64,000 nucleotides of DNA, taken from the NCBI GenBank assembly GCA_051294905.1, contig CM119380.1, positions 14,632,001 through 14,696,000 on the forward strand, in the 5' to 3' direction. The stretch is from Botryllus schlosseri (lineage: Eukaryota). A program made the position numbers and the translations under genes. The notes below the pieces were generated by a model. The model was given only the letters and a program-made list of their open reading frames with translations, did not search any database and was not told the DNA's origin. Positions 41,694 through 64,000 of the stretch are shown piece after piece. How positions within the stretch are numbered: the first letter of the stretch is position 1; every line of letters begins with the position of its first letter.

Positions 41694-43308
41694 TATCATT
41701 GAACCAAAGTCTCCGATATTTTCTAACGCTATCAAGATCAAAGCAAAGAGTAAGAAAATAAAGTACCTGCAGTTACCCCAAACGTTGATTGTCTTATTGA
41801 CCGAGTCTCTTGTCACCCGTATTCTAATATGAGCCGCCGTCTCGAGCGAAATAAACTTCGCCCGTCTCATTACAGACACCTGATTAGGCTTAGGTCAGAC
41901 GGTCAGAGCCTTCAGTAAAGCAGTAAAGGTTCGGATTTAAAGCCTACCGAAATTACTATCGGTAATGTTACGTCACAACCCGTACAACTTGTATTACGTA
42001 GGATTCTATTGTGATCAGGGAATGACCTTCGCGTCAGTAAACGTGAACATAAACGTACATTTGTTGTGTTGAAGGCGCGATTTATTTATGATCATGAATA
42101 ATTAGAATTTCCGTAGAAGCATCAATGATTTCACATCGTTAGTGAGAGCCGCACGGAGAGCAGTCGAGAGCCGCATGCGGCTCGGAGAGCCGCGGTTGAG
42201 AATCACTGCTCCAGCCCATTATCTGCGTTATTTCAAGGTTTTCGATCCACCTTTTTGGGGTAGAGAATTTGTGTAGTTCGGAATTCTTGTATAGTTTGGG
42301 ATTGACTTTTTTGATCTTTGTTCCCAGTTCATAGATTGCATGCCTATGCCAAATTTCGGTCGGGCATTCGATCTTTTTTAGAGTCGCAATTTTTTCTATA
42401 TCGCATGCTTTTGCGAGGGACTCAATGTCGGGTATTCCGAAGCCCCCGTTTTCTTTTTCTGCGATCATTGATTTTCTGGCAATTGCCTCCATCTTTTCTG
42501 GTGACCATAGAAAGCCGAAGTACATTCTTTCTAGTTCTTTTCGGTCTTCTTTCGGGAGTGGAATGACTCTGGCGTTGTAGACGATTTTTGTCGTCGCCAT
42601 CGAGTTCAAGATTGCTTTCTTGCCTGCCCAAGTTAGCTCTCGATTTTTGTAAGCATTTAGGGTGCGTTTTACTTTCATCTTGTTTTCATCCCAGGTTTTG
42701 TGTATCTGGTTTGTCCCGAAATATTGACCTAGGATTTTTATTGTTGGGTGTTTTAGGTTTTCGTATTGGTCGATATTATATCCTCGTGTTCGATTGATTT
42801 GTAAAATCTCAGTTTTTTCTGGGTTAAGTTTTTGGCCAGTTGCTTTTTCGAATTTTTGGAACTCTCTGAATATGTGTTTGATATCCTCCCCTTTTCTTAG
42901 GAAGCAGGTGATATCATCCGCATATTGTTGTAGATTTATTTGTTCTTTCCCTATTTGGAATGGTCTGATTTTTCCATCTGCTTCAATTTGCCTTGCCAGA
43001 GGGTCGTTGCTTATGGAAAATAGTACCATACTTAGAGGGCAGCCTTGCCTAATGCCTCTCTCGAGTTTTATGGCTTTGGTCAGTGCTCCGTTTACCGCGA
43101 TCTTGGTGCTTGCAGTGTCGTATATGTTCTTTACTACGGAAATGTAGTGTTCTTGAATTTCGTATTTCCGCAGGATTTTGTAAAGGTATTTGTGGTGTAT
43201 TCGATCAAAAGCCTTTTCTTGGTCGAGGTTGACGATAATCAGTTCTTTTTTTCGTTCCTTGGCATATTCAATGGCGGCTCGTGTGTTTCGTAGGATATCA
43301 GTAATTTG

Positions 43309-43489
43309 AGTAGTATATAACAGCACGTTCTCATGCGGACCAATTAAATCGCAGCATTTGATCACGTGACTACTTTTGAATTTCAAATCAAACAGAGAAA
43401 AGCGCGCGAAAGAGTTATATCAATAGTGCTTCAATAGGGACAATGGGTGACAATATATGTCAATAACGGGCGTGACCGTCATTGTATTG
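43309..43489 (+). repeat. Left TIR of the Polinton
   Basis: 180/181 identical to the reverse complement of 62368-62548; looser similarity continues about 35 bp further. Confidence 0.96.
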
Positions 43490-43658
43490 ACAATGATTGT
43501 GTCAGCTGATTGTATAATGGGTGTTAATGGGTGTGGCTTAGGAGAGCGAACCGTGACAGCATAATGGGGTGTGTGCTAGCGAACGTTACGGTATTGTGCA
43601 ATGGTTAATACCATAGACAAGTCCAAAGCTAGTGATATTACACCATACACAGCTTTGA

Positions 43659-43868
43659 TCACGTACCAAATTTGTAATTATATATTTTTTTAGCATCACT
43701 ACAAATCATTCTTATTCCTATATACAGTCCAATTATTCCTATACAGCCATCCCATCGCAAGCTCCATCCCAGTTCCTCTCCCAGTGCTTGTCCAAATGTT
43801 CGAAGTATATTTTCGCTCGTTCTGGTGTTACACCCTCCATTGTTCAGGATTTGCAGTCTTCTGCCCAT
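43659..43868 (-). CDS. Possible small membrane protein, 69 aa
   Basis: ATG-initiated with a hydrophobic stretch GCIGIIGLYIGIRMIC; no other support. Confidence 0.25.
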   Translation of the reverse strand: MGRRLQILNNGGCNTRTSENILRTFGQALGEELGWSLRWDGCIGIIGLYIGIRMICSDAKKIYNYKFGT

Positions 43869-44195
43869 CTCGCCTAGCGTTCGTTGCTGTTGTTTTGATT
43901 AACGCGTCAAAGTGGGTACTTAGACCCACTCCAATCACGTGACTACTTTTGAATTTCAAATCAAACAGAGAAAAGCGCACGAAAGAGTTGTGTGTCCGTT
44001 ATTGCACAATGGGTAATAACCTAGCGATATTGCACCATACATAGCTTTGATCACGTGACAAGTTTGCAATCATATATATGTTTATTCCGCGATGGTGTGA
44101 TCATCATTGTATTGACAATGATTGTAGAAGAAGTTTAGGGGACTATTTAAGTCACAAATTTGATGCTAAGCCATTCAATACGAAATTGAGCGACG

Positions 44196-44522
44196 ATGGG
44201 AAGAATAGTGATTAACGATGTCAAATTCGAATCTCCAACAAATATTACAATGGACCAAACTTCAAAGAGTATAATAGTAACGGGTGTAGCGACGATAAAA
44301 TTTGAGCAGCAGTTCATGATAAAACGCCGTGAAGGATATACGTGGGTGATCATACGTGGCGAAGACAACGAAAAAAAATCAATGAAGATTCATGAGGAAG
44401 ATGTCCGCATAAATGGAAAGTGTATTACTATCAAACAAGGAACCGCCGTGGAATTAAACAGCCTATTCATGAAAAATTGTTACAGATTAGAAATGAGCGA
44501 CGCATCTCATCTCATACATTAA
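44196..44522 (+). CDS. Hypothetical Polinton protein, 108 aa, beta-rich
   Basis: ATG in good context, TATA-like TATTTAAG about 50 nt upstream. Confidence 0.6.
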   Translation: MGRIVINDVKFESPTNITMDQTSKSIIVTGVATIKFEQQFMIKRREGYTWVIIRGEDNEKKSMKIHEEDVRINGKCITIKQGTAVELNSLFMKNCYRLEMSDASHLIH

Positions 44523-44686
44523 TATATTTTTTGTTGTAGATTTGAAATGCGCTACGCATGTCATTTCATACATTAATCATATCATTCATTATTCTGTAAC
44601 CTATTTCTATTTACATGTATAATTAGATTGAATTATAATTTATTTGAAAGCAAGTGCGACAGTTCGAATACTATCATTCGATAGAC

Positions 44687-45166
44687 ATGCGTGCTTTGAA
44701 GCGTTTGATATATGAACAAGCAAAATTTAAGCAGAATGCTTACGAAGGGATCCGAGCAGGACCATTCGATGAAAAGAATATGTATAGTTGGTGGGCAACG
44801 ATCCAAGGACCAAACGGAACGCCCTACGAAGGTGGTGTGTTCAGATTATCAATCGAATATTCTACCGAGTATCCATTCAAGCCTCCTAAAATGCGATTTG
44901 AAACACGGATATTCCATCCTAACGTAAGCTGTAAAGGTACCATATGTGTCGATATTTTACAGAAGGAATGGTCACCAGCGATGACAACGTCCACTCTACT
45001 GATATCAATACGTTCATTGCTCGCTTCACCAAACCCTTATGATCCGATGGATCAAGAGAGTGCGGAAATGTATTTAAAAAATAAGGAACGTTATTTCCAA
45101 CTAGCTACTCAATATACCCGTAGACATGCAATGGAAGATACGCAAGTCACCCAGCAAGAAAAATAG
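44687..45166 (+). CDS. E2 ubiquitin-conjugating enzyme (UBE2D-like), 159 aa
   Basis: GP.GTPYEGGVF, YPFKPPK, FHPNV, catalytic ICVDIL, WSPA motifs; intronless; AATAAA at about 45229. Confidence 0.95.
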   Translation: MRALKRLIYEQAKFKQNAYEGIRAGPFDEKNMYSWWATIQGPNGTPYEGGVFRLSIEYSTEYPFKPPKMRFETRIFHPNVSCKGTICVDILQKEWSPAMTTSTLLISIRSLLASPNPYDPMDQESAEMYLKNKERYFQLATQYTRRHAMEDTQVTQQEK

Positions 45167-45430: not shown

Positions 45431-45772
45431 CTAATAACAAGCATCATAAAATCGCGCGTTGTGTAACGCTTCGAATACGATTATATTTTTTACAACGATC
45501 GCATTCCCTTTAAATTCTATAAGAATAGGACAGGTACGCGGTAAACAGTAATGTTTGTCTTTGCAGACAGTGATTGTCGGAGATTCAATCTTACCGTAGT
45601 GAGGAACATGCAGTTTCTTCACTACGATCTTATTGGTACGATACATTATTTCACATGAGAAAGGAATAGTGATAGATCTCACTTTCGGTAATACAATCGT
45701 TTTTTCATAATACCTACGATCTCCATTACTACTCAAGCGTAGGGGACCAATACAAATGCGAGCCATAGTCAT
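45431..45772 (-). CDS. Hypothetical Polinton protein, about 111-113 aa, beta-rich
   Basis: TATA-like sequence upstream (~45810), AATAAA just past the stop. Confidence 0.6.
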   Translation of the reverse strand: MTMARICIGPLRLSSNGDRRYYEKTIVLPKVRSITIPFSCEIMYRTNKIVVKKLHVPHYGKIESPTITVCKDKHYCLPRTCPILIEFKGNAIVVKNIIVFEALHNARFYDACY

Positions 45773-45857: not shown

Positions 45858-46598
45858 TTATTTCGATTTCTTCCATTGAGATTTTATCCAACTGAAACTT
45901 CTTTTTCGAATGAGATGATCGTGTTCATCCAATTTGAAGCTTGATGATATCGAACACTTTTGTCTCTTATCTAGTTGTCGCAATTTACACATAAGATCGA
46001 AGAATTTGATTTCGTCGTTTTCACGTATGACGGTTCTGAAATTCTTTGCAAAAGCACTACCGTCTTCAAAACACCAACTGATTTGATCGTCACTAACTGC
46101 ACTTATGAGAACAGTTTTGGATTTTACGTCTCGTTTGCGTTTGAGTGCTTGCGAAGCAGCGTCTTCTCGTAAATGAAATTTCAAATCGGCAGAGTTACCA
46201 CTATAACACTGCGCAAACATGAGTAGGTTTTTTGTATCTTTACGAAAGCTTTTTAATAGCTCACACATATCATCATCGAGTAGATGCCTATCATAAAATA
46301 CAAATCCGGAATCGCGAGCTTCAGGATCATTTTCTTTTGTGTTATTTGGACATGAAAAGCCGTGACCGACGAAATATATGAAGTTTATCTTGGCGCTACT
46401 ATCGGCCATCGTTTGAAGCTCTCTGGAAAAATTTCCAAGAGTGGCTTGCTCTTCACGCAACACTTTGATATCTTCAGTCTTGAATTTGAATTTCTGTACT
46501 AAGATATCTGTCATAATCTGAATGTCTTGTAACGTTCCTTCATTTTCGACATGGTGCGGCTTTCCGCGATAACACATCGATACTATAAGCGCATTCAT
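45858..46598 (-). CDS. Metacaspase-like cysteine protease (peptidase C14 / caspase-hemoglobinase fold), 246 aa
   Basis: NALIVSMCY...GTLQDIQIM...F.F..EDIKVL...ATLGNF...FIYFVGHG (His) ... MFAQCYSG (Cys) ... VLISAVSDDQIS...GSAF follows metacaspase order; TATATAA about 35 nt upstream of ATG 46598. Confidence 0.85.
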   Translation of the reverse strand: MNALIVSMCYRGKPHHVENEGTLQDIQIMTDILVQKFKFKTEDIKVLREEQATLGNFSRELQTMADSSAKINFIYFVGHGFSCPNNTKENDPEARDSGFVFYDRHLLDDDMCELLKSFRKDTKNLLMFAQCYSGNSADLKFHLREDAASQALKRKRDVKSKTVLISAVSDDQISWCFEDGSAFAKNFRTVIRENDEIKFFDLMCKLRQLDKRQKCSISSSFKLDEHDHLIRKRSFSWIKSQWKKSK

Positions 46599-46662: not shown

Positions 46663-46980
46663 TTAAAAGCGATTTCTCAAAAATTCCCATAATTTTAGTT
46701 TACGAAAAACGACAAGTTCACCGCGGTTACGACGAATAATTCTATGCTTCGACAACACATCTATATACATACAATTTTTAGGAAAACGCACTGGTATCCA
46801 ATCAGACCCGCGGAAAATTGTAACTTCGTTATCATGCGGGTAAATGCGTATGTGAAACGGCTCGAAAGAAATTCTATGAATACGATTTGCATTCATGACA
46901 ATAATTTTTCCTTGGACTTTCATGTAGGCCTTCTCATCATCTCCAAAGTATTCTATGATGGTGAAACTAGTTGCTCCCAT
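46663..46980 (-). CDS. Hypothetical Polinton protein, 105 aa
   Basis: Tightly packed between protease and metacaspase, same strand. Confidence 0.55.
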   Translation of the reverse strand: MGATSFTIIEYFGDDEKAYMKVQGKIIVMNANRIHRISFEPFHIRIYPHDNEVTIFRGSDWIPVRFPKNCMYIDVLSKHRIIRRNRGELVVFRKLKLWEFLRNRF

Positions 46981-47414
46981 TTCAAGATTCTAACGAAGTC
47001 CACTACGATATCGTCGTTCTCTTTTCGATCATCACCGAAGTGATCCAAATACTGTAGTGTGCTCATACCAGTAGAGCGTTTGACGATATATGCAATTGCA
47101 TGAGCTCCACAAGCGTCTGACCTTTCATGCTGTAATGGTTTTATTGAGCTAGTATAATTTTCGGGATCAAGGAAACTCGCAATCTCAATCCTGAATGGAG
47201 TGATACCCAGACTATCGTGAAAATGGGTTTCATATTGATCAGCATATATGCAAACCCAGTGACTACCTTCCTTGTGACTTTCATCATAATTGATCACAAT
47301 TGAATAAGGAGGTTTTGGGCGCTGAGGGAGTTGATCAATAGGGAAATTCCCTAGATAGTGTTGTTTCGTAGCATGGTAACTATACAATATTTCATCTATT
47401 TCTTGTCCGTTCAT
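46953..47414 (-). CDS. Adenain-like maturation cysteine protease, 153 aa
   Basis: GSHWV (His), HDSLG (Asp), LQ...SDACG (Gln, Cys); start overlaps the capsid stop as ATGA. Confidence 0.93.
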   Translation of the reverse strand: MNGQEIDEILYSYHATKQHYLGNFPIDQLPQRPKPPYSIVINYDESHKEGSHWVCIYADQYETHFHDSLGITPFRIEIASFLDPENYTSSIKPLQHERSDACGAHAIAYIVKRSTGMSTLQYLDHFGDDRKENDDIVVDFVRILKWEQLVSPS

Positions 47415-48688
47415 ATCACGGTCACCGTGCGAGCTTGGCTTATTTCCAGTATTTTTTGAAATTCCATAAAGCACAGCAGTGTCGTTTCGCTCTCAACACC
47501 TGCCGCAGGAAAGGTGATTCGAAGACTGATCGTTCCACTTTTCTGCAGCTCGAAGCAGTCATCTAAATCGTCACCTCGCAAATTATATGCTAGAAGCGTG
47601 TATCCATTTGCGAACTCGGAAGGGGAAATCAAGCCTTTTTGTCGTTCGATGGCACCCATAGATTGAATGAGATTTAGGTAGGCCTCGGAATAATGATTGT
47701 TTTCAAAATCAAGTTCGTAGCCACCTTCCGGCATAAGGAAACCATTTACTTTCAATTCAACCCGATTCATTTTATTATGAATAAAATTATATGGGTTCTT
47801 ATCGAGTGCTCCTTGGAATGCCTCAGTTTTCACCATGGCTATAATCAAACGTGTCGGCAGGGTTCCCGAATACAGATTACCAATATCGATTTGAGTGGTG
47901 TTAGCCGCAAAAGTTCGAGTCAGCAGCTTCATGTCCATAAAGGGATACCTAGCCGGTGCGTCTACCATCAAGGCAGATTTTACATCTTCTGTTACCCGCA
48001 CTCCACATAGGTGCAATTCTTTTTTGATGATTTTGAAATTGCTGGTAGCGGCTCCAAACAGAAAGAAACTTTTCGGATTCAATGTCAATTCGAACTCTAA
48101 CGGAACCTCGTCCAAAATATAGCGGTCTTGCAAACACAACCCGTGATGTATTTTACCGCGAATTTCAACGACTTTGCTCCCGGCATACGGCAAACTTCTC
48201 GCCTTATGACCTTTGTTAACCGCATCATTGCCTAGGCCCGAATCATCCAATTGCTTCTCTGTGTCTTTGACCCATCCTTGTGTAAGAAGCGTTGTCTCTT
48301 GCACGTCGTGAGGTGTGAACAGATAGTGTAAGTAGGCCGAATAACATTGTAGCTTCACGTCTTGTTTCAGGGTATGGTTCCCGACTTTGATGTGAAGTTG
48401 AGAAATTAGAGAATCAAGAATGTTATTCACAACTCCAATGCTGTCCGTGGCAGCTAGATCCGCATCGCCTTTCAATAGTTTCAAGCGAAATAAAAAATAG
48501 GATTCGCTTAAATCAATAAAATCGTCACATCCTTCATAGCGGTAAATAATTACGCTTGCGTTGTCCGACACAGGCGGAATCTTAATGATCCGTTTCTTCT
48601 CCACGCTTGTTTGGGTAGGTGGGAGTTGAAAAAGATCCAAGCTAGGATGTACGCCTTCGGCAGATTTCGCGTGAATTAGCTCCGTCAT
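47411..48688 (-). CDS. Major capsid protein (double jelly roll), 425 aa
   Basis: Polinton-type start LDLFQLPPTQTS, P+LIIAMV...F.G....NP+NF.H, C-terminal GT+SL...F; position in the morphogenesis block. Confidence 0.9.
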   Translation of the reverse strand: MTELIHAKSAEGVHPSLDLFQLPPTQTSVEKKRIIKIPPVSDNASVIIYRYEGCDDFIDLSESYFLFRLKLLKGDADLAATDSIGVVNNILDSLISQLHIKVGNHTLKQDVKLQCYSAYLHYLFTPHDVQETTLLTQGWVKDTEKQLDDSGLGNDAVNKGHKARSLPYAGSKVVEIRGKIHHGLCLQDRYILDEVPLEFELTLNPKSFFLFGAATSNFKIIKKELHLCGVRVTEDVKSALMVDAPARYPFMDMKLLTRTFAANTTQIDIGNLYSGTLPTRLIIAMVKTEAFQGALDKNPYNFIHNKMNRVELKVNGFLMPEGGYELDFENNHYSEAYLNLIQSMGAIERQKGLISPSEFANGYTLLAYNLRGDDLDDCFELQKSGTISLRITFPAAGVESETTLLCFMEFQKILEISQARTVTVI

Positions 48689-48738: not shown

Positions 48739-49107
48739 TTAATCGAAAATGTCCCGACGGCGCTTTTTCCGTTTCGTGGTCTTTTTTCTAGGTGCCTTTC
48801 TCTTGCCTAGGAAGTTGTCAAGAGCTTTGCTAGCTGCTTGTTTACCTCTTATTTTGAAGCTTTCACCGACGTTTTGCCCACGCAATACGTCAGAAGCTAC
48901 TTCTGCTCCTGTATGGAGTAGCTGTTTGCCGAGAGCTTTCGCCCCTTTTGATATCAATGGTACAACACTTCGTCCCAAACTACGAAAGAGATTTCCTAAA
49001 CCGTGTCCTCTTTGCACTCGTCCTCGAAAATAGTTTATGCCATTACCACTTTGCACACGATAGTATTGTTGAAAGGCATCGCGATCACAACAGTAATGTG
49101 CTCTCAT
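48739..49107 (-). CDS. Conserved Polinton virion protein with QxGxG motifs, amphipathic helix and basic tail, about 122 aa
   Basis: QSGNG and QRGHG followed by LGNLFRSLGRSVVPLISKGAKALG; C-terminal RKKTTKRKKRRR. Confidence 0.75.
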   Translation of the reverse strand: MRAHYCCDRDAFQQYYRVQSGNGINYFRGRVQRGHGLGNLFRSLGRSVVPLISKGAKALGKQLLHTGAEVASDVLRGQNVGESFKIRGKQAASKALDNFLGKRKAPRKKTTKRKKRRRDIFD

Positions 49108-49834
49108 GATGACGTAAAGCAAGTGTGATATCAATCATGGACCCCTTCAGATTTATAGCCGTACCTTTATCGTCTTTGATACTAATCTGAATTCGACGAG
49201 CGTCTTCCGTAATCATAGGGAAAAAGTATATTTTTTCGAATATATGATGTTGATATTCATTGACACTACTCGTAATGGGGATGTTTCGTAATAGCGGAGC
49301 TTTCGTGTCCCCGACTGATTGCGGTCGAATGAGATCGGTATAAATTAATAAATTGGTGATAGGCGTAATGGAATCCCTCAGAGTGATCTCTGAAGTTAAA
49401 TAATTCCCTCCTAGCAGCTTTTTCTTCCTAAGCTTTCCATACACGAAAACCGGATTTCTGACTCTGGTTGGATTCTTCAGGAAATTAGGAAACGCACCCG
49501 ATTTGTAAGGTGGAATGACTAACATACCAGTAGAACTTCCTAGCTGGTTAATATATACTTGGTCCTGCGTGCGATTGATTCTATCAATCAAACTTTTGAA
49601 GTCATAATAATTACCCTTGGGGTAATAATAATGATTTTTACTTCCCACTTGAATCAGAGGCGATGTTTTCTCATCCTGAAATTGCCATAACAGAGCGTCG
49701 AAAGCAGGTAAAGTAGGTTGGAACTCGTTGCGAATCGAGAACTCCGCTAGGCCCAGTTCGTATTTTCCTGCAATCGGTCGTGCTAGCTCGAGAACAAAAT
49801 CTGATTCCAAACTGCTAATGTGAATGTATTTCAT
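49085..49834 (-). CDS. Minor capsid (penton-like) protein 2, 249 aa
   Basis: C-terminal LLIYTDLIRPQSVGDTKAPLLRNI...ISIKDDKG motif typical of Polinton pentons. Confidence 0.8.
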   Translation of the reverse strand: MKYIHISSLESDFVLELARPIAGKYELGLAEFSIRNEFQPTLPAFDALLWQFQDEKTSPLIQVGSKNHYYYPKGNYYDFKSLIDRINRTQDQVYINQLGSSTGMLVIPPYKSGAFPNFLKNPTRVRNPVFVYGKLRKKKLLGGNYLTSEITLRDSITPITNLLIYTDLIRPQSVGDTKAPLLRNIPITSSVNEYQHHIFEKIYFFPMITEDARRIQISIKDDKGTAINLKGSMIDITLALRHHESTLLL

Positions 49835-50661
49835 AGTGCGATACCGCGCTTTCGGAATTGAAGTACAGCGCTCGATGGAGCGCTTCGAAACGGAATTTCA
49901 CCCCCTTTGTGATCCAGCAAGGAAATTTTTACCCGTTCCAATCTATTTATACTTAGCGGAAGAAAGAAAGGTTTTACGTAATATTTTGAAAACACCTTCT
50001 TATCTCCTTCGACTTTTACAACTCGTAATAAACGCTGTAGTGAACCGCTAGACTCTTGGGGTTCAATGATGTCGCAATGAACGTATACGAAATCGATTTT
50101 CGACAAGGGTCGTACATCAAAATTGAGATGTATTGTCTTGTCAGTAAAAAAGTATGCGGATAGCTCTGCTCTATTCTTCGGCAATATGAAACGTAGGAGC
50201 GTAAGGGTAACTACCGCCAATTCTAGATGCTCAAGTGTCCCAGTATAATCGTACTCTCTGGTGTCGATTCGATATCGCGTATCCTCTCCCGGTCTTGCAC
50301 TAGCTGCAATGTTTTTGTGTGGAATCGAAACCGTCAGGCTATCACTTTCAGGAAAACACTTGACTTTCACATCGGGATTAATGCTCTCCAACGATTTAAA
50401 CATGTCATATACAGATTCATATTCACCAATTTTGAACTTCAATCTTCTTGTGACTTCACTGGGACCCATAATGTCGAAACCGTAGTAGCTATTTGTGATT
50501 GGGATCCGTTCGTTAAAATCGGTTGGGAAGCCAATCTCAGTCAACGCGACTTCGCTTCTTTCTACATTTCTGGGGGTGTCTAGTTCGTTGGTGTAAACCG
50601 CAGCTGTATTTTGTGGAAACCTGTCCATGGAGGCATTGGAAAATAACGTAATATAACTCAT
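49831..50661 (-). CDS. Minor capsid (penton) protein 1, 276 aa
   Basis: YITLFSNASMDRFPQNT...EVALTEIGFP start and VYVHCDIIEP...LLRVV...ISLLDHKG end. Confidence 0.85.
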   Translation of the reverse strand: MSYITLFSNASMDRFPQNTAAVYTNELDTPRNVERSEVALTEIGFPTDFNERIPITNSYYGFDIMGPSEVTRRLKFKIGEYESVYDMFKSLESINPDVKVKCFPESDSLTVSIPHKNIAASARPGEDTRYRIDTREYDYTGTLEHLELAVVTLTLLRFILPKNRAELSAYFFTDKTIHLNFDVRPLSKIDFVYVHCDIIEPQESSGSLQRLLRVVKVEGDKKVFSKYYVKPFFLPLSINRLERVKISLLDHKGGEIPFRSAPSSAVLQFRKRGIAL

Positions 50662-50870
50662 AGTTTGGGTATCTTTGGAGCCGGTAACATATATCCCACA
50701 CACGATGATAACAGCGACACCCAAAGCTCTTTGTTGTCTTGCACGACACTCAAATTATACAGCGAAAAACTCACGATGAGCAGTATAATTATAACTTGAG
50801 CAATGAATTGATAAAAGTTACGGTTCGACGATATCTTTTTGATCGACCCAGGTATTGAATTCCGGTCCAT
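50658..50870 (-). CDS. Small two-helix membrane protein, 70 aa
   Basis: FIAQVIIILLIVSFSLYNL and ELWVSLLSSCVGYMLPAP; stop overlaps the penton start (ATGA). Confidence 0.7.
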   Translation of the reverse strand: MDRNSIPGSIKKISSNRNFYQFIAQVIIILLIVSFSLYNLSVVQDNKELWVSLLSSCVGYMLPAPKIPKL

Positions 50871-53360: not shown

Positions 53361-56300
53361 TTACAAAGCAAGCGGTACAGTATGAATCCCATCACTCAAT
53401 ACAATTCTTTTATAGTAACCGTATGATAGAGCGGAACGATATTGATGATATGTATATATATCTCCCTGAAAGCAACGGAATCCGGAGTTATACCCTCCTG
53501 ATATAGAACGGTTTTGCAATACACCTTTGAAATCTTTGAAAGTTTTGCGGGCCGTTTTACTCAAACCTTTCGATGAATATTTATCTGTATCACCCGAGCA
53601 ATAGTAGGTTTTTGAATTGAGGCCAACAAACCCCCGTCCACTCCATTCTACTTTAAACAAACCCGGTGTTCGCTTAGAGTAATTATGAGCAGCGACACAG
53701 CACGGTTCATCGATTTTGAATGCGACCGGGTCCCTCTCGAAGTCTGTTTTATGCTTAACGCACGCCTGCTGAACCAACCACTGATCATGAACTTCAAAGA
53801 ACTCTTTACGCTTTGAAGGTATGATCAATGAGTAGATAGAATCAGCTGATATCGCTAAATAACAGCTGTCGGTGTCAAGTTCAAGATGAAATTGATCACA
53901 ATCGTTTATGTAGACGTGGAGGAAGTCATACATGAACGACAACATCCGTTGCTTACTGTGATTAAATATGAAGAAGCCTACGATGACGGGTTGATCAAGT
54001 TGAGTCGTATCGGGCCGTGAGGTTACTTCAATTAAGTCCGAATCAATTTCATCAGCGTCGATAAAATTCGGTTTTTTGATGAGCGCTTGAACTTCTTCGC
54101 AAGTCACATATTTGTGATTTTTATATTTGGCTGGATTTTGTATAGTGGTTCCGAAAGCACTATTTCCAAGATTCTTGAAGGTTAATGCCTGCATTTCAAG
54201 TGCATGGTCTCTAGGAATAACGTCACCTTTACGCCGTAGCGTAGTTACGCGATCTACGAAGTTGCGAAATAGTCTTTTAGGTTCATATTCCAAACATTGA
54301 TAAACACGTGTGACCACCATTCCGTGACGCAAGTACCAACTCAACAAGTCGGTAGTAACCAATTGCTTTTCGATGAAATAACTGGACGCGAGCGCTTTTT
54401 TTGGAAACTTGACTTTGTTTTCCCTTGCGTATTGAGCCATATGCGGACCGATATCACATTCATTAATTTCGATGTGCTTAAAGAAAGGCGGTAACTCTTC
54501 AAACTTAGATTTCAAATGATCTGGGCAGTGCGCGTCGCATTCTATCGCACCGAAAAAGCGATTGTTAACGACTCGATCGAGTATTTGTTCTTGCGATAGT
54601 AAATATTCTTTTGTCACATTCCTTTGTAAATGTGCAACGAGGCGCGCAATGTCTGGATCGCGCTTCATTGCTTTCCATTCACATTCGCGCACTCGAATGA
54701 CCTGATATCCTAGGCGTTCAAAATAGGCGGTGGTTTCTTCGGTTTTAATGCGTCGATTATGATTAATATTTTGATTATTAGATATACAAGGACACGAGTG
54801 CCACCAACATCCGTCCATGTTGAATATTAACTTCCGCTCCGCTGAGTATCCATCTACGCTAATTCTACGGGCTCCCAGTTTCACTTGCGGACCGTTCCAA
54901 GCGTGACGAATCGGAATACCGCGAACAATGCTTTGATAAGTTAACCACTCGAGTTCGATCATGGACGGATAAGTCTGTTTTCTATGAAATTTCTGTTTCA
55001 CTTCATCATACAGCCAACGGGTGACATATCCAGTTGGCATATTGAGATCAATGGCGTGCAAATATAATGCGTTGCTGTCATACCCTACTATAGATTTCAC
55101 GTCTTTGGCTGCGTCTCCATACTTCAAAATGCGAATTTTGGTCTCGTCTGCCATTGCATACCGGTTTGTAATTTGTGCCAATCCACCGATTAAGTTATTA
55201 GTTACAGTGTGATGGAGATCGGCATTGGCTTTATTGAATAAAGCGATTTCCCACCTTTCATCGAACATAAGTCGATTAGCTATACTCGGTAAGCTGACGT
55301 GATTTTTGAACATGTCAATCCCCAGTTTTTTATAAAAGTCGAAGTGGTTATTTACCGCGACGAGAAAGCCGACCACATCACATTCATTGTAGTATTTTAA
55401 AAAATCCCTCATTGTTTTCATATCGAGACGCTTCCAAGTATCGACGCATTCTTGGTATTGTTCAGCTGTAATATTATGCCCGCGAAGACTACTATAAAAG
55501 CTATCGTGTGGCGGTAGCGATGTTTCTTTCAATTTATCAATATGCGTCATATATTCGTATGGAAAGAAAAATTTATTGTTTACTCCATCACCGTACACTT
55601 TCAAATACGCATCCAGGCTATATCCCGGAGCGAGGAATAGAGATATATCTAGAAATTTCAATTTATTTGTGGAGATAGTGAGGTAACTGCTGTTTCGCTT
55701 CAATACAAAAAAGCCGCTCTCCTCTCGCAAAAGAGCAATCAAATATTTTTTACACAGATTTAAATCGTAGCGAGCCGAGTTGAATCCGATTACGGGTATT
55801 TGATCTAACCACGTTTCAAAGCGATGATACAACAACTCCAGGTACGATCGCGTTTTAATCGGATCAATCACTTTACGTTCTTCAATCAAGTCGCGAAGAG
55901 CGGTCAACTCGGTGTCATATATAGCACGCATTTGCGAAGACGCAATTTCTTGAATTTCATGAAGCTTATCGACCATTTCTTTAATTAGATCACGCGGGTT
56001 GCCATTGGAAATAAATGTAGTTGTTTCGTTCGTGACATTATCACACAGTGAGACCGAGAGCGGGACATGTTTACTGGTAAATTTTACTTTGGCTGTATCG
56101 GGCTTGAGATTTTCTTTTACTAAGAGACTCTCAAAGTCAAAGCAAATTCTGAATTTGTAAAAACGTTTTTCTTTACTAACAAATATACCTTCATTTTCCA
56201 AATCTTCAAACACCGTCGCTTTAGGACGATAAACACCAGAACCGTAGCGATACCTTTTCTCAGAATTACAATGATTTTTAATATGTCGTTTTAAACTACT

Positions 56301-57227
56301 TTTCAAGGTAAAGAATGTTTTACACGAATCACACATAAAAGTAGACGTATAATTCTCTATATTCAAAATTAAAGAACAGTGATTTTCGAGCATGTGAATA
56401 TGAATTGTGAGTCCAGACGCATTGGAAGTACGACGCAAGACCGTGGTTTGTTCACGTTTCTCGTAAAGCAATATTCTAACGTTAAAACACGCTTCCACTT
56501 TCGATAGTTGGTCGAGGGATATACCATTGGCAACTGAAATTCCGTAACGATTTTCAAATTGCGTAGTCAATTGAGAAACATGACTTTCGTCACGTTTTTT
56601 AATTAATCTAAATGAGACGCATCGAAACAGACAAAGATTATCTGTATATGGTACACCTTCACGATTACGAATAAAAGCACTGATATATCTACATTTGGAT
56701 AATCTTTCCATTTCTTCTGAGACAACGCCCCCGCTAAGTAAAGGTCTTTCCATTTCATACAGGAATAAAGTAATGTGTAGCACCTCCGAACAAACAAATT
56801 TTGTATCCGGTCTGACTCGATTCGCATAATCGTAACCGGCCGATAAATCAATTGCATTTCTAAACGAATCAAAATCTTCACGCGATATGATAGTTCTTGG
56901 GACATCGAGGACAGCTTGCGATGATTGGGGGTGAAAATACGTATATCGCTCAGACTCGCGATTATATAGTAGATACCCAAAGCCATAATTTATTTTAAAT
57001 TGTCTAAATCGTTGCGGGTATATACTTGCGATACGCGCGTGAATGTCTGCGGGGTCTCGTTCAATCATCCGAATATTGACTATATGTCGCACGCGATTTC
57101 TCGAAGTCCACGTTGAGTCAATGATCGAATCGTAGTGCTCTTCAATTACTTCGACGGCGGCATCTTCAAAGCCCAAGGATTCATCGACGATCCAATCTCG
57201 ATCCAAATATCGCCTGCGTAGAGTCAT
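53361..57227 (-). CDS. Protein-primed family B DNA polymerase (pPolB), 1288 aa
   Basis: Exo I FDFES, Exo II GFNSARYD, Exo III YNECDV, Pol YDSNALY, KNLGNSAFG, LDTDS; C2H2 finger and VSR-like insert. Confidence 0.97.
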   Translation of the reverse strand: MTLRRRYLDRDWIVDESLGFEDAAVEVIEEHYDSIIDSTWTSRNRVRHIVNIRMIERDPADIHARIASIYPQRFRQFKINYGFGYLLYNRESERYTYFHPQSSQAVLDVPRTIISREDFDSFRNAIDLSAGYDYANRVRPDTKFVCSEVLHITLFLYEMERPLLSGGVVSEEMERLSKCRYISAFIRNREGVPYTDNLCLFRCVSFRLIKKRDESHVSQLTTQFENRYGISVANGISLDQLSKVEACFNVRILLYEKREQTTVLRRTSNASGLTIHIHMLENHCSLILNIENYTSTFMCDSCKTFFTLKSSLKRHIKNHCNSEKRYRYGSGVYRPKATVFEDLENEGIFVSKEKRFYKFRICFDFESLLVKENLKPDTAKVKFTSKHVPLSVSLCDNVTNETTTFISNGNPRDLIKEMVDKLHEIQEIASSQMRAIYDTELTALRDLIEERKVIDPIKTRSYLELLYHRFETWLDQIPVIGFNSARYDLNLCKKYLIALLREESGFFVLKRNSSYLTISTNKLKFLDISLFLAPGYSLDAYLKVYGDGVNNKFFFPYEYMTHIDKLKETSLPPHDSFYSSLRGHNITAEQYQECVDTWKRLDMKTMRDFLKYYNECDVVGFLVAVNNHFDFYKKLGIDMFKNHVSLPSIANRLMFDERWEIALFNKANADLHHTVTNNLIGGLAQITNRYAMADETKIRILKYGDAAKDVKSIVGYDSNALYLHAIDLNMPTGYVTRWLYDEVKQKFHRKQTYPSMIELEWLTYQSIVRGIPIRHAWNGPQVKLGARRISVDGYSAERKLIFNMDGCWWHSCPCISNNQNINHNRRIKTEETTAYFERLGYQVIRVRECEWKAMKRDPDIARLVAHLQRNVTKEYLLSQEQILDRVVNNRFFGAIECDAHCPDHLKSKFEELPPFFKHIEINECDIGPHMAQYARENKVKFPKKALASSYFIEKQLVTTDLLSWYLRHGMVVTRVYQCLEYEPKRLFRNFVDRVTTLRRKGDVIPRDHALEMQALTFKNLGNSAFGTTIQNPAKYKNHKYVTCEEVQALIKKPNFIDADEIDSDLIEVTSRPDTTQLDQPVIVGFFIFNHSKQRMLSFMYDFLHVYINDCDQFHLELDTDSCYLAISADSIYSLIIPSKRKEFFEVHDQWLVQQACVKHKTDFERDPVAFKIDEPCCVAAHNYSKRTPGLFKVEWSGRGFVGLNSKTYYCSGDTDKYSSKGLSKTARKTFKDFKGVLQNRSISGGYNSGFRCFQGDIYTYHQYRSALSYGYYKRIVLSDGIHTVPLAL

Positions 57228-57409: not shown

Positions 57410-57820
57410 CTAGAAAACGAAATTATATCTCAAGCGCAATTTAGATTGGTTTAGACCGTACAGAAACATGAACTTAATTCTGTCCAATCTAGCAATCTCA
57501 GTATCACGAATATTCGAGTCTGTTTTATCGTCACACAACAGTTTTTCGATATCTTTGATCACGTTTTTTGCAATGACAAGAAAATTTTTTGTCCAGTCTT
57601 GTTCGAATCCTTCCATCGAAATAAGGCGGTTCCACATCGCTTGCATTTTCAAATGATCGTCCATCATGTGTTCGAAGTAAGAACCAATATCTTGACGAGG
57701 ACGCTTTCGTGAAGGTTCTTGTGGATCCAGTAGACTTTGATAGAAGGCCGACATATCGCTAATTTGTGTCATGTCTCTCTGAGTGGTGGATGCAGCTATA
57801 TCGGCTAAGTTATCATTCAT
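57410..57820 (-). CDS. Hypothetical Polinton protein, about 136 aa, possibly spliced
   Basis: Open frame preceded by a strong acceptor (TTTTGTTTGCAG at 57830); a GTAAGT donor overlaps its stop. Confidence 0.55.
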   Translation of the reverse strand: MNDNLADIAASTTQRDMTQISDMSAFYQSLLDPQEPSRKRPRQDIGSYFEHMMDDHLKMQAMWNRLISMEGFEQDWTKNFLVIAKNVIKDIEKLLCDDKTDSNIRDTEIARLDRIKFMFLYGLNQSKLRLRYNFVF

Positions 57821-57981: not shown

Positions 57982-59580
57982 TCAAAGACTATCATTATAA
58001 GCTGCATTTTTTCTGGTTCTGAAGCTAGATGCTCTAAGATACAGTTCTTCAGCCAAGGGATCATTCTCAACACAGCCATTAACTCCTTTAATACAAGTTT
58101 TAGTTCTCTCTATTAAATCGAACAGAACATCACGACGGGCATGTTTGTTGAAACTGACCAGAGAAGGTGAGTAAATACCCCTTCCAAATTTTACGATGAC
58201 CGTTTTAGCCCTGAACGATATAGGATGTTTGACAGTCATCAAGTCAGAGCCATTTTGTTTATCACAAAGCATGAAGCAGCAAGATGGATTAATAATCCCG
58301 TATTCACATTGCACTGCTGTACGATTTATAGTCAGAATTGTTTCCTGTAAAGCAGTATTTTCAAAGAAAAGCGTTCCGCAGTTCGGAAACACAGAAATAC
58401 ATTTTGTAGCATCATAATATTTGAAAGCTTTCAAATTTTCCAAACTCGACAGCAAATAATTTGCTGTTTCACTACCGAAAAGCATTTCGTGCAATACTTC
58501 CTTTCCAGAATGGCAATGCCCTTCCAGAAAGAAGTGTGGAGCAAGTAATTTTTCATGAGTCAAGCTTTCACCGACAGCTACTATCAGAGCGGCACGAAGA
58601 AAATTGAGACTCCGTTTCAACCCGCCATATTGTATTTCAACAATATTTTCTTCCAGATATCTATACATGACTGTTCCATCATGTATTTCTGTCATCTCTC
58701 TTAATCCAACTAGCCAACGCATGAATAAGCGATTCTTCTCATCATACTCCTGTTCTGCTTTGGTAGTGTCATGTATATGTCTTTGCATTGGCCTAAGGAC
58801 CGGAGGATCATGCTGGATCCAATATCTAGGAAAGATCCTTATTGACGATTGATCTGGCGATGATGGTATATTCGGCTTTGGTATAGAGCCAACATTAGAG
58901 TCGGAAAAACCACTTGAGATATGAGTGGAATCGGCGACAAGCTCACTGAAAGTAGGTTGCTCTGTAACTTGCGATGTGCTCTTCTCTATACGTCGCAGTA
59001 GGATTTGCTTCGCGATCTCATTGCTATCACGAGAAATTTCACCTAGCGGCTCGCTACTTTCGGCAATCGCCTCCGCACCAAGAGACAAATCCATTTCCGT
59101 GTCGGGATTGCCTACTGCTTGTCCCGAAGCTTGATGATTGACAGAAGGGGACGGATCGCTAGTCACGTTCTCAACGTCATAAACGGGTTGTTCACCTACT
59201 GGTGTTGATTGACTCAGAGGTATCAATTGATCCTTAAGTTGGGTCTCGTTGCTAATTAGCTCGATGTCATTAGCCTGTTGTTTTGATGGGGATGAATCAG
59301 TTTGGAATGCGGGACATATCTGACGTATGACAACGCGTTCGCGAAATTCTTCTTCGCTCAAAGATTTCAGAAGAACTTCTTTAGCAGATGGGATCTTCGT
59401 TATGGGTCTAAAGTATCGATCCATAGCGACGAGTTCCTCATCATCTTTATCCATTTGATCACATTTCATATGATTCGGAATTTCTACACTCAATGCATGG
59501 TCACTGCTTTCTCGGGTTGATTGGTTGCTTGGCAACTGCTGACTATCATCACCCATAATTACTTCAACTTGCAAAGACAT
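57982..59580 (-). CDS. 532-aa protein: disordered acidic N-half plus degenerate SF3-helicase-like C-half
   Basis: FFLEGHCHSGKE resembles a Walker A; downstream spacing matches SF3 motifs B, B' and C, but catalytic residues are altered. Confidence 0.55.
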   Translation of the reverse strand: MSLQVEVIMGDDSQQLPSNQSTRESSDHALSVEIPNHMKCDQMDKDDEELVAMDRYFRPITKIPSAKEVLLKSLSEEEFRERVVIRQICPAFQTDSSPSKQQANDIELISNETQLKDQLIPLSQSTPVGEQPVYDVENVTSDPSPSVNHQASGQAVGNPDTEMDLSLGAEAIAESSEPLGEISRDSNEIAKQILLRRIEKSTSQVTEQPTFSELVADSTHISSGFSDSNVGSIPKPNIPSSPDQSSIRIFPRYWIQHDPPVLRPMQRHIHDTTKAEQEYDEKNRLFMRWLVGLREMTEIHDGTVMYRYLEENIVEIQYGGLKRSLNFLRAALIVAVGESLTHEKLLAPHFFLEGHCHSGKEVLHEMLFGSETANYLLSSLENLKAFKYYDATKCISVFPNCGTLFFENTALQETILTINRTAVQCEYGIINPSCCFMLCDKQNGSDLMTVKHPISFRAKTVIVKFGRGIYSPSLVSFNKHARRDVLFDLIERTKTCIKGVNGCVENDPLAEELYLRASSFRTRKNAAYNDSL

Positions 59581-60256: not shown

Positions 60257-60610
60257 ATGGTGTCTATTAAGCCGTTAGGTGCACATCAGGCAATGAAGAA
60301 TGAAGTCGGTGATATCGTTTATGAAATTTGTAATCGAAATGCGAAGCAGAACGAAGCTGTGTTTTTCAATATGAATTTTGAACGTAGATTACGTTCGTTC
60401 GAACCTTACAAAGAAAATTTCAACAGTAGTGCCTATCAATTAGCAGAATGTGGATATTTTCATCTCGGCTTCGAAAATTTAGCCAAATGCTATATGTGTG
60501 GAAAACTATTCGAAAATCTCTGTCATTGTGATAATGTATGGGTTGAGCATGAACAAGTGAATAGTCGTTGTGCTTTACTAAGTAAAAGAAATGACAAGAC
60601 TCATTCTTAA
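60257..60610 (+). CDS. Single-BIR inhibitor-of-apoptosis-like protein, 117 aa
   Basis: RRLRSF...LAECGY...exact Cx2Cx16Hx6C zinc motif (CYMC...EH...RC); no RING. Confidence 0.9.
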   Translation: MVSIKPLGAHQAMKNEVGDIVYEICNRNAKQNEAVFFNMNFERRLRSFEPYKENFNSSAYQLAECGYFHLGFENLAKCYMCGKLFENLCHCDNVWVEHEQVNSRCALLSKRNDKTHS

Positions 60611-60691
60611 TCTATTTTCTCGTGTGAGGATTCATGTTTTCACTGAATAATAATAACTATGTTGTGTTTTCTATATTAATTTAGAATCAAT

Positions 60692-61276
60692 ATGAGCATC
60701 GCAATAAGAGGTGATAGTAGAATTGTTGGTGGTCCAACAATGAAAAAAGAGTTATATGTTTTTAATAACATATCGAAGCTACGACTTGAAAGCATAAATG
60801 ATGATGTAATTGATCATCATCAATTGCGCTTACATCGTACTTCGGGTGCCATTCAACGATACAAAGCCGTCTTCACACACAAAGGGGGTCTCGTCGCGAC
60901 CTATACTCGTGATGGTGTTGAATGTTTCCAGCAGATTAACCCAGCAGACGAATTTACAATTTATTCTCCAAGTATGTTAGATTGTAAATATCTAATGAAA
61001 TTCTGTACTAATAAACTATATCTTTATATAGGTAACGTGGTACAGGATCCTGACCGTGGTCCGCTATCGTTCATTCTGCAGGAAACATCTCGCTTCATCG
61101 CAGAATCGGGACAAATCCAATCGAAAGATCATCCTCAAGCGAACTTCGCGACTAATGGCATGAATGCGGCGCCGCAAAACGCCTATTATGGAATGAATGC
61201 TGGCGTAGCGCCGCCACCGCCACCTCAATACGGACATCGCCCTGCTGGGTGGATGCAAAATTCTCAGCAATTTTAA
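60692..61276 (+). CDS. Hypothetical 194-aa protein with Pro/Gln-rich tail containing PPxY
   Basis: C-terminal APPPPPQYGHRP; AATAAA at about 61305. Confidence 0.65.
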   Translation: MSIAIRGDSRIVGGPTMKKELYVFNNISKLRLESINDDVIDHHQLRLHRTSGAIQRYKAVFTHKGGLVATYTRDGVECFQQINPADEFTIYSPSMLDCKYLMKFCTNKLYLYIGNVVQDPDRGPLSFILQETSRFIAESGQIQSKDHPQANFATNGMNAAPQNAYYGMNAGVAPPPPPQYGHRPAGWMQNSQQF

Positions 61277-61508
61277 ATTACTGGTTGAATATGTGTTAAT
61301 GGAAAATAAAATGGTAAATTCCTATTTGGTCTGAATAATAAATCTCATCCTACATTTGTGTCTCTCTCTCTATTCTTAAAGCTTTGGTGTTAGAAAAAAT
61401 TGTGTCAGAATCACGAAGCTAGTAGCTCTATATCAGAACGAGACGGTAACGAGTATGCACTGAAAGCACAACCTAACAAAGTCGAGACAAGACAATACAA
61501 ATCACCAT

Positions 61509-61706
61509 TCAATAGTTTATTTCGGTATGCGTACAGTTAGTCAAAGAATATGCTCCGATATAACGTAAAATCAATTTCATTGCTTCTTGGTCAGTAGCTA
61601 AGCAGTCCTCTTCGTGATATTTCACGCTGAAAGGGTATAACAATTCGGGAGCATCCGTTGATTTCCAATTTAGCATCAGCAAGAATAGTATGAATATTAG
61701 CTTCAT
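61509..61706 (-). CDS. Small putative secreted protein, 65 aa
   Basis: Signal-peptide-like MKLIFILFLLMLNW, two Cys, NCT sequon. Confidence 0.6.
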   Translation of the reverse strand: MKLIFILFLLMLNWKSTDAPELLYPFSVKYHEEDCLATDQEAMKLILRYIGAYSLTNCTHTEINY

Positions 61707-61870
61707 TGCCCGAAGACTTTACAGATAGCAGCTTTAAGATCGTTGCAAGCTTCTGCAATCTCGGAATCTCTTTTTTTCTTGTATATATTGATACAGCAAT
61801 AGCTTTTAATGCAAGAGCATAATATCACGTAGAACGCGATATCGGAGTCTTCACTCAGAAGTATATCCAT
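61703..61870 (-). CDS. Small Cys-rich putative membrane protein, 55 aa (below ORF-track cut-off)
   Basis: MDILLSEDSDIAFYVILCSCIKSYCCINIYKKKRD...; TATTTAAA upstream; its TGA overlaps the next ATG (ATGA). Confidence 0.55.
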   Translation of the reverse strand: MDILLSEDSDIAFYVILCSCIKSYCCINIYKKKRDSEIAEACNDLKAAICKVFGQ

Positions 61871-62007
61871 TTCTCATGTCCCACTCACTCGTAGTGGTGT
61901 TTAAATAACTACTTTTGGCGCGTTAATTCCCAACGGTAAACTCATTGAGGCATTCAAATCTGGTAACGGTAAATCAAATGGACTGTTCTCATTTTTTTCT
62001 GGTCGAG

Positions 62008-62271
62008 CTAATTCCGTGTGGTAGTACAATCATACATACAACTATTAGACAATTCATCGAGTCTCTCAATTGTAGCACATCGACCATTTTTACGAACCCA
62101 TATTTGTATCATTTGATAACATTGTTCAGTTAAGTTCTTGGGATCCGCGTATTCACAATCAGCAATTTCTAAGTCTGTTAACTTAAGTTGATCTCTAGCA
62201 AATCTTTTCCAAGTCTTGTAATGAACCCTATCTATAATGTCGTATACATCAGAAGCTGTAATCCCCGACAT
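62008..62271 (-). CDS. Stand-alone death domain protein, 87 aa
   Basis: WKRFARDQLKLTDLEI...DPKNLTEQCYQMIQIWVRKNGRCATIERL matches the death-domain helix pattern. Confidence 0.85.
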   Translation of the reverse strand: MSGITASDVYDIIDRVHYKTWKRFARDQLKLTDLEIADCEYADPKNLTEQCYQMIQIWVRKNGRCATIERLDELSNSCMYDCTTTRN

Positions 62272-62367
62272 CTTCCAATTGCAATCCTTGATTTCTTTGA
62301 TGGTATAATCTCATAAGCGACATACATATATATCGTTGTGATACACCTATTATGCGATCAGCTGACG

Positions 62368-62548
62368 CAATACAATGACGGTCACGCTCGTTATTGACAT
62401 ATATTGTCACCCATTGTCCCTATTGAAGCACTATTGATATAACTCTTTCGCGCGCTTTTCTCTGTTTGATTTGAAATTCAAAAGTAGTCACGTGATCAAA
62501 TGCTGCGATTTAATTGGTCCGCATGAGAACGTGCTGTTATATACTACT
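62368..62548 (-). repeat. Right TIR of the Polinton
   Basis: Reverse complement of 43309-43489 with one mismatch. Confidence 0.96.
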
Positions 62549-64000
62549 AATTTGTCTGTTTTTTATCGCACATTTTTGGGATGTGTTTATCAGGTTTGGT
62601 AATATCAATTTTAGTCTGTTTGCCAGGATGCCTGTTAGTATTTTGTAATCAGTGTTTAGTAGGGTCATTGGCCGCCAATTTTTGAGACACTTTGGATCTC
62701 CTTTCTTGTAGATAATAGTGGTTATACCGCATTTCCATGTGTCGCAAAGACCGCCAAAGATGTATGCGTTGTTGATGACCTCGTGAAGATCTTTTTTGAT
62801 CATACCCCAGAAGGAAGAGTAAAACTCTTTTGACAGGCCATCCGAGCCCGGAGTCTTATCGCTTTCCATTTCTTTTAAGACTTCTTGCAGTTCACTCTCC
62901 TCAATCTGGGTGTCGAGGTTATCTTTCTCTTCCTGGGATAGTCTTAGGCCGTTTAGGACACTTAGATATTTATCTTGTATCCGCGTATCCTCTTGTTTTG
63001 ATCTGGACCACAAAGCCTTATAGAAGTTTTCTATCTCGTGCATTGTTTCATCTGCACCCATGGTCTCTCTGCCGGAGTCTATTCTGATGCTCTCGAGGCT
63101 GTTTTTCTCTTTTCTTTTTTTCAACTTCTGATAAAAATATTTTGTCGGCTTCTCGTTCTGTTCGAGGTCTTTTATTTTATGCATTTTGCATTGGTGCATG
63201 ACTCTTTCGTCTTCTATTCTTTTTAGCTCTCTGATTTCTTTTGAGGCGACGTTGATGTTGTCTGTAGCGTTGTTACTGCTAGCGGTGTCGTGTTGGAGCT
63301 GCCTTATCTTTTCTTGCAGATCTTTAATTTTATTATAATCAGCGTTTTTCTTTTCGCGCTCGTATTTTTGCAGATGGATTTTGATTGCGTTTTTGGTGGT
63401 GTCCCACCATTGATAAACGTCATCATGCGTGTGTTTCTTTTTTTGACATTTTTTTAAATAGTTTTTCTATCTCTGTATGTAGAGTTTCATCTTCGTACAG
63501 GCGGGCGTTGTTCTTCCATACGCCGTATCCCCATCGCTTCTTTGTTGGCTCTTGTAGTCTAGTTTTTGTTAGGAATATATGATCCGATATCGTATTTAGT
63601 TTATAGGTACAGGTTTTGACATGAGCAAGGTACCTTTCTGAGGCATATATTCTATCTATCCTTCGTGATTGGTGGGCTTTCATTATTGTATATAGTTTTT
63701 TTGTTGGGTTACGCCATCGCCAAATATCTCTGATTTTGTATATGTCTGTGAATGTTTTCCAGTTTTTTGCTGCTGGGGTTAACTTGAAGTTTTTAACATT
63801 TTTCGAATCCAGTCTATCTTTCACCATGTTAAAGTCACCGCATATTATTGCACACTAACATACACTAACTAACATACGGAGGCTAGTTATCTATAATTGA
63901 ACAGTTTAAGATTCCGTCATTTCGTCTGAGATGTTCCAAGCAAAGGAAGAACACCTTTATTGTCACACCCCGTTAGAGTGGTAAACCCTTTAAAAAAGTA

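Follow-up and report, generated by a model that had tools for sequence, protein, structure and literature searches.

Is the long insertion that interrupts a LINE (long interspersed nuclear element) in a 64,000-nucleotide stretch of Botryllus schlosseri DNA (assembly GCA_051294905.1, contig CM119380.1, positions 14,632,001 to 14,696,000; hereafter the window) a complete Polinton that moved recently, and what do the genes that it carries do for it? The element is a real Polinton, very young and complete, and its class is a known one. Taken by itself, the insertion is ordinary; less ordinary is its cargo, a metacaspase-like protease together with a predicted death-domain decoy. We put at about 70% the probability that this is a complete, very young copy of a multicopy Polinton family that has spread as self-replicating linear DNA, at times packaged, and whose cargo manipulates host cell death.

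The Polinton spans positions 43309 to 62548 (19,240 bp) between two exact copies of AATTTG (Table 1). The perfect target-site duplication (TSD), the terminal inverted repeats (TIRs) matching at 180 of 181 bases and the (AGT)2 termini described in a sequence-only reading of this DNA are all borne out: AGTAGT begins both ends, and the sole TIR mismatch is at TIR position 161. Beyond 181 bp the TIRs stay alike until about position 216, though less closely and with a 10-base gap. Use of the mismatch as an age clock was rejected, because the same left/right difference is present in the sibling copy C13 and was therefore inherited. A search of the 495.5-Mb assembly by TIR gave 43 matches, and 11 end-pairs were formed from the 30 loci returned; 10 of these carry an exact 6-bp TSD, every one different, and the C5 pair lacks one. 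The TSD of the present copy is therefore not a chance match. TIR, TSD and element length (181 bp, 6 bp and 19,240 bp) fall within the ranges for Polintons (100 to 1500 bp, 5 to 8 bp and 13 to 25 kb) given in PMC10748475.

Translated separately and without joining, the two LINE flanks remain in one codon phase across the TSD. In L052, the nearest LINE paralog, AATTTG occurs once at the corresponding place, i.e., the site is empty. No large insertion is present there in 18 further aligned LINE paralogs (64 to 74% identity). Restoration of the LINE frame upon removal of the element thus stands as regards the flanks and the empty site, but the LINE itself was not intact. Its own frame break, its cut and the end of its alignment (Table 1) rule out the knockout of an intact gene; since the LINE was already damaged, the restored frame shows a clean insertion rather than the loss of a gene.

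Class features taken from PMC10748475, PMC11161782 and PMC8097293 are present throughout the element: pPolB, an rve integrase, the TIR, TSD and length already described, a major capsid protein (MCP) with a double jelly-roll fold, a packaging ATPase and, by a weak match, a maturation protease, which identify it as a Polinton/Maverick (Polintoviricetes). Every core gene is encoded on the minus strand and is free of stops (pPolB, 1288 amino acids [aa]; integrase, 334; ATPase, 206; protease, 153; MCP, 425; putative minor capsid proteins, 249 and 276). The structural model of the MCP matches double jelly-roll capsids, and the putative minor capsid open reading frames (ORFs) are two conserved paralogs at the expected place, with no match in Pfam or PHROG. 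A Pfam search gave no direct PF03175 match to pPolB itself; 404 relatives were found at an E value of ≤1e-50, and PF03175 is assigned to most of the 120 listed. An insertion within pPolB has weak Vsr-like matches (four related Pfam families at E 0.055 to 0.15; a PHROG endonuclease at E 0.003). A putative insertion of this kind, along with a marine host, would liken the element to the VSR-bearing pPolB2 Polintons that Jeong et al. (2023, PMC10748475) described from molluscs and a nematode of marine origin, but many relatives of the present pPolB carry PF03175.

Among the closest published parallels are intact vertebrate Mavericks, of which 134 were reported in 17 species (Barreat and Katzourakis 2021, PMC8097293). 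They are 12.7 to 24.6 kb long and have open core ORFs, TIRs, a 6-bp TSD, several intact copies per genome and purifying selection on capsid genes, with virions not observed; the same pattern is seen here. The present element differs in that all its core genes share a single strand, in its pair of putative minor capsid paralogs and in cell-death cargo with a metacaspase. Other animal Polintons with a protease, a capsid module and an integrase are the adintoviruses (Starrett et al. 2021, PMC8502044).

Searches with the metacaspase and with the ATPase each recovered 14 copies at >90% identity, indicating a family of about 14, and the ATPase search (150 of 227 candidates scored) revealed at least 150 Polintons in this genome, in at least four identity classes. 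Contrary to its treatment as exceptional in the sequence-only reading, the locus is one of many in this genome; intact Mavericks have been published as well (PMC8097293). Sequence was retrieved for 10 siblings (C5 only partly, the other nine completely), and these differ from the present copy at 0.84 to 5.28% of aligned sites, unevenly along the length, which suggests recombination among copies (mosaicism). The copy number, the low divergence and the different TSDs support recent movement of the family. The seven core genes are unbroken in four of the nine fully fetched siblings; breaks occur in MCP (C3 and C9), in pPolB (C2), in pPolB and a minor capsid ORF (C4) and in several genes (C11).

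The present copy has 24 private sites out of 18,988 for which at least six siblings give coverage: 13 silent, 5 replacement and 6 noncoding, with no stop. Against a neutral expectation of about 3.7 replacement changes per silent change, the silent bias has a binomial P of 5e-6 to 1e-3, depending on the expectation assumed, and it differs from the 138 replacement to 79 silent changes of the older copy C11 (Fisher P, 0.005). The bias indicates that most private changes predate the insertion and accumulated under selection; later decay probably affected no more than a few sites per ten thousand. In comparison with the 10 siblings, the window copy has no residue of its own in pPolB, integrase, ATPase, protease or MCP, and the catalytic motifs of these proteins are present. 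The claim of a very recent and complete insertion thus holds, on the private sites, the exact TSD, the full ends and the open core ORFs, and a check for hidden inactivating substitutions found none. MCP variants common to several copies comprise 28 silent and 12 replacement changes, and between families nonsynonymous divergence (dN) in MCP is 0.10 and synonymous divergence (dS) is 1.5. These substitution patterns show purifying selection on capsid and other core genes and on cargo genes.

An assembly artefact, such as a collapsed or chimeric repeat, might also produce so perfect a copy, as 99%-identical multicopy repeats can misassemble and no sequencing run record spans the whole stretch. The unique TSD nevertheless fits the empty paralog, the private sites are silent biased and the right junction is found in an independent run (X5), so that an artefact is very improbable.

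The metacaspase-like C14 protease consists of 246 aa with no prodomain. All six of its PDB sequence matches at E < 0.01 are plant or yeast metacaspases or the bacterial relative GSU0716, and no animal caspase is found among PDB sequence matches at E up to 1. Its structural model (pLDDT, 86.9) has TM scores of 0.73 to 0.76 to metacaspases versus 0.53 to 0.61 to MALT1 and caspases, with plant, fungal and trypanosome metacaspases as the best folds. His79 and Cys131 are invariant across 12 aligned relatives. The His-Cys dyad, the C14 fold and the best sequence and fold matches are thus shared with known metacaspases (C14B; plant, fungal and trypanosome proteins and giant-virus homologs), to which the protein is nearer than to caspases or paracaspases. 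Metacaspases are calcium dependent and cleave after Arg or Lys, a specificity in which an acidic S1 pocket, including an Asp two residues before the catalytic Cys, has a role. This Asp is Ala in both metacaspase-bearing Polinton families and is replaced throughout the close clade, whereas it is present in all 15 viral rows in which the motif was read. Because this acidic pocket feature is replaced, the protein is called metacaspase-like; it also differs from known metacaspases in its size and lack of a prodomain.

All 16 metacaspase matches in the genome lie in Polinton copies, 14 of the same family and 2 of a second family (family 2) at about 66 to 67% identity. In family 2 (G000 C11:4.68-4.70 Mb and C2:31.12-31.15 Mb; L079-L084), the gene occupies the same place, after the protease, with a dN of 0.25 and saturated dS between the families. 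Family 2 also carries several BIR genes (one of 404 aa) and a death domain. One fetched copy each of families 3 and 4 has no metacaspase match, and the gene is therefore accessory. Metacaspases have been displaced by paracaspases in animals, according to PMC3417536. No Polinton metacaspase was found in the open literature, including PMC11131425, PMC11071296, PMC11161782 and the supplement of PMC8502044, although Repbase, subscription papers and bioRxiv supplements may describe such cargo.

Metacaspases in 34 viral loci, many of them named giant-virus metagenome-assembled genomes, raise the alternative of a parasitic element that depends on a large host DNA virus as its helper, from which it took the metacaspase and against or alongside which it uses its cargo. 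Metacaspases are described in marine Nucleocytoviricota (PMC10583209), and Polinton-like viruses have been tied to entomopoxviruses (PMC11296320). The viral matches are only 21 to 31% identical, however, and in a quick, unfinished tree of 71 rows (matches from P0061 onward and rows of <170 residues left out), a clade made up of the Polinton proteins and unnamed collection proteins stands separate from every one of the 16 viral rows. This tree does not support a giant virus as metacaspase donor. Transcripts were also seen in an ordinary host RNA library, and dependence on a large virus is improbable. The collection relatives are 38 to 87% identical and lie on contigs of <3 kb; none of 474 candidate metagenome contigs gave a metacaspase alignment.

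The sequence-only reading overlooked the cell-death cargo. The 87-aa death-domain-only protein is 59% identical to the best host death-domain caspase. Its closest non-Polinton matches are long intronless ORFs clustered on C8; this host cluster (G000 C8:2.35-2.40 Mb; L078 and L085) consists of tandem intronless ORFs of 520 to 570 codons, and both ORFs checked encode a death domain and a caspase with Gln-x-Cys-Cys-Gly at the catalytic site. Viral death-fold decoys are represented by vFLIP, poxvirus pyrin-only and CARD-only proteins, and the likeness is that a DNA virus carries a single death-fold domain akin to one used in host signaling; here the putative decoy is a death domain matching host death-domain caspases. 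The BIR protein and the E2 ubiquitin-conjugating enzyme have intact motifs, and both are conserved in family 3. IAP and Bcl-2 homologs are accessory genes of adintoviruses (PMC8502044), the available supplement of which has no mention of caspase, metacaspase, death domain or ubiquitin-conjugating proteins.

By analogy with Polinton and adenovirus biology, replication would be protein primed at the AGTAGT ends and proceed by strand displacement, the rve integrase would insert the element with a 6-bp stagger, and the ATPase would package DNA into double jelly-roll capsids, the virion phase being kept under selection. The death-domain-only protein may serve as a decoy for host death-domain caspases, while BIR and E2 may damp apoptosis. 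The metacaspase-like protein, encoded inside the capsid-gene block, could act late as an accessory protease whose substrate pocket has shifted.

In a 3% portion of one host-species single-cell RNA run, 55 reads fall on the element, and their strand follows the direction of the genes: E2 has plus reads, and minus reads cover the 136-aa ORF and the end block of integrase, ATPase and polymerase, with few reads at the death domain. These reads show low transcription of the family rather than of this copy in particular. No RNA run is among the indexed runs listed as holding the element. In DNA run X8, depth is about 1,200 on the element versus 51 on a flank contig, a ratio of about 23 to 1 that fits the integrated copy number, contig depth being a poor measure. 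The single flank contig of X8 (42820 to 43278) has 13 listed differences, six of them common to L052. Junctions were checked in eight runs over 42350 to 62340, a stretch that ends before the right TIR and right flank, and none of the records settled the left junction. Coverage in X5 is even over TIR and spacers and looks like DNA, and it is the short-TIR right junction that is seen there.

Several results weigh against a packaged, host-manipulating element. None of the 55 RNA reads falls on 45685 to 50353 (capsid, protease and metacaspase), which is a weak test; the reads are not assignable to this copy (21 of 55 at ≥99% identity); X8 shows no excess of free DNA by contig depth; no viral-contig relative of MCP was found; and the genome search found no host metacaspase, although an intron-split gene could be missed. 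The lack of capsid reads among the 55 and of a free-DNA excess in X8 would suit a germ-line-only transposon, the capsid and cargo genes of which are idle leftovers of an earlier viral phase, as would the broken MCP or minor capsid ORF in three of nine siblings that still have TSDs (C3, C9 and C4) and the insertion of sibling C22 without E2 and with half a metacaspase. The sibling breaks also fit decay after insertion, however, and in MCP, protease and ATPase silent changes predominate among shared and even private variants, which argues that virion genes were under selection while the family recently spread. Confinement to the germ line is therefore unlikely, and recent spread with packaging at times is preferred.

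A broader reading is that the family belongs to a living virus lineage of marine animals. Such a lineage would have brought a protease class foreign to animals, the altered-pocket metacaspase, into animal cells and would combine it with a captured death-domain decoy, BIR and E2 to set when host cells die; it would still move between host species and act as helper for genome-sized palindromic satellites. The element is present in runs X6, X9, X11, X14 and X15, one of them a marine metagenome and the others labelled as four other organisms, at half or more of the sampled words. The four other-label runs hold long contigs about 98 to 99% identical in the capsid block, and two also hold flank-like LINE sequence. 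Movement between host species would explain this identity, but cross-species transfer is not accepted from these runs, as close kin, mislabelling or carried-over host DNA fit too; the broader reading is doubtful.

Proposed replication from the ends may have left a trace in sibling C22 (G000 C22:307517-324716; L031 and L032). The part corresponding to window positions 43309 to 46130 (2.8 kb) is absent, and the right 838 bp stand in its place as an inverted copy. The arms are identical at 837 of 838 bases, at TIR position 161 both ends have the allele of the right end, and the TSD is exact; the death-domain gene is consequently duplicated, E2 is absent and half a metacaspase is left. The simplest reading is that the left end arose by template switching during strand-displacement replication before integration, and C22 would then record end-copying as a footprint of the proposed replication mode. 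TIRs of four other siblings are about 380 to 416 bp long, while C13, C22 and the present copy have a shorter right end in common, which thus did not block three insertions of this sub-lineage.

C22 is also a possible first step towards palindromic forms. Outside the present family, family 2 and the host cluster, 89 death-domain matches were found, 62 of which form 31 inverted pairs 4.9 to 23 kb apart. Thirteen elements with long inverted arms were fetched, six from inverted pairs and seven from a terminus search (G000 C3:10093517-10108373, L071 and L072; C13, L086 and L087; L126-L139). These palindromic satellites have arms 99.0 to 100% identical and AGTAGT ends, and none of the 13 has a core-protein match. 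They are about 12 to 17 kb long overall (14.3 to 16.7 kb in seven measured); eight have an exact 6-bp TSD, one has a 5/6 match and the ends of four were not reached or recognized. Their likeness is greater to families 3 and 4 than to the present family, and one carries Bcl-2 and a death domain nearly identical to that of family 3. The satellites support recent Polinton activity in this genome.

Features of the element and its target are listed in Table 1. The basic 122-aa ORF is likely a core protein, given its composition and position. The SF3 (superfamily 3)-helicase-like/DUF5906 likeness of the 532-aa ORF, which has no Pfam match, is a lead only, and an Atlas search with the 194-aa ORF gave no usable match. 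A 96-aa ORF at 59707 to 59997 was rejected as a gene, being broken in 9 of 10 siblings.

Table 1. Coordinates of the Polinton, its genes and the target LINE in the window
Feature	Position	Strand	Remarks
Target LINE, 3' part of reverse transcriptase ORF, truncated	42208..43302	-	PF00078; alignment to L052 stops at 42208
Left TSD (AATTTG)	43303..43308		
Left TIR	43309..43489	+	First bases AGTAGT; CCAAT-like box at about base 32, also in sibling and other-family ends
108-aa ORF, no family	44196..44522	+	89% identity in family 2, at opposite end
E2 ubiquitin-conjugating enzyme, UBE2D-like	44687..45166	+	PF00179, E 4e-47; PDB matches; HPN motif and catalytic Cys; sense RNA reads
113-aa ORF, no family	45431..45772	-	Homolog in family 3
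Metacaspase-like C14 protease	45858..46598	-	His79 and Cys131 present; Asp two residues before Cys replaced
105-aa ORF, no family	46663..46980	-	Conserved in families 2 and 3
Putative maturation protease	46953..47414	-	His/Asp/Gln/Cys motifs; weak match to African swine fever virus (ASFV) pS273R, E 0.024; beside MCP
MCP	47411..48688	-	Model pLDDT 76.7; best fold Sputnik MCP, E 3e-18, TM 0.67
Basic 122-aa ORF	48739..49107	-	72 to 91% identity in families 2 to 4
Putative minor capsid protein 1	49085..49834	-	Assigned by position; paralog of adjoining ORF
Putative minor capsid protein 2	49831..50661	-	Paralog of putative minor capsid protein 1
rve integrase with chromodomain	50818..51822	-	PF00665 above cutoff, PF00385; D-D-E motifs present
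154-aa ORF, no family	51810..52274	-	Conserved across families
Basic 101-aa ORF	52372..52677	-	Conserved across families
A32-type packaging ATPase	52713..53333	-	PF04665; Walker A and Walker B present
pPolB	53361..57227	-	Relatives at 33 to 54% identity; exonuclease and polymerase motifs
136-aa ORF, no family	57410..57820	-	Bins over ORF hold about half of RNA reads
532-aa ORF	57982..59580	-	C-terminal part like SF3-helicase-like DUF5906 proteins (Atlas score 0.93, 176 shared features)
Single-BIR (IAP-type) protein	60257..60610	+	PF00653, E 1e-10; zinc ligands present
194-aa ORF, no family	60692..61276	+	Conserved across families
69-codon open frame	61509..61718	-	In 10/10 siblings, stop in one
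Death-domain-only ORF, 87 aa	62008..62271	-	PF00531, E 8e-11; FADD matches
Right TIR	62368..62548	-	
Right TSD (AATTTG)	62549..62554		
Target LINE, 5' part	62555..63870	-	Own frame break at about 63423-63466; cut at about 63870

Within TIR bases 30 to 60, the 43309 end and the ends of L071, L079, L086, L123 and L140 have CCAAT near base 32, often with CACGT behind it; bases 7 to 30 vary between these families and satellites while the boxes stay. The CCAAT and CACGT boxes are candidate host-factor sites of the origin. Fifty-six TIR bases are copied internally at 43934 to 43989, and short direct repeats occur at 43626 to 43692 and 44018 to 44084 and also at 59960 to 60169; the internal copy and the repeats are possibly promoter modules. 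The CpG observed/expected ratio is 1.53 in pPolB, 1.29 in the element and 0.98 in window positions 1 to 39000. The window is a nest of mobile elements: an open hAT-type transposase ORF of 660 codons (39888 to 41870) adjoins the truncated LINE, and long direct repeats lie at 1 to 2200 and 15512 to 17700 and at 7685 to 8462, 17710 to 18487 and 24906 to 25421.

If the cargo works as proposed, the family would represent an animal DNA virus with a metacaspase, a class reported lost in animals, and with a decoy aimed at a host caspase family. Native particles had not been observed for Mavericks as of 2021, according to PMC8097293, and the youth and copy number of the present family make B. schlosseri a good host in which to seek native Polinton particles.

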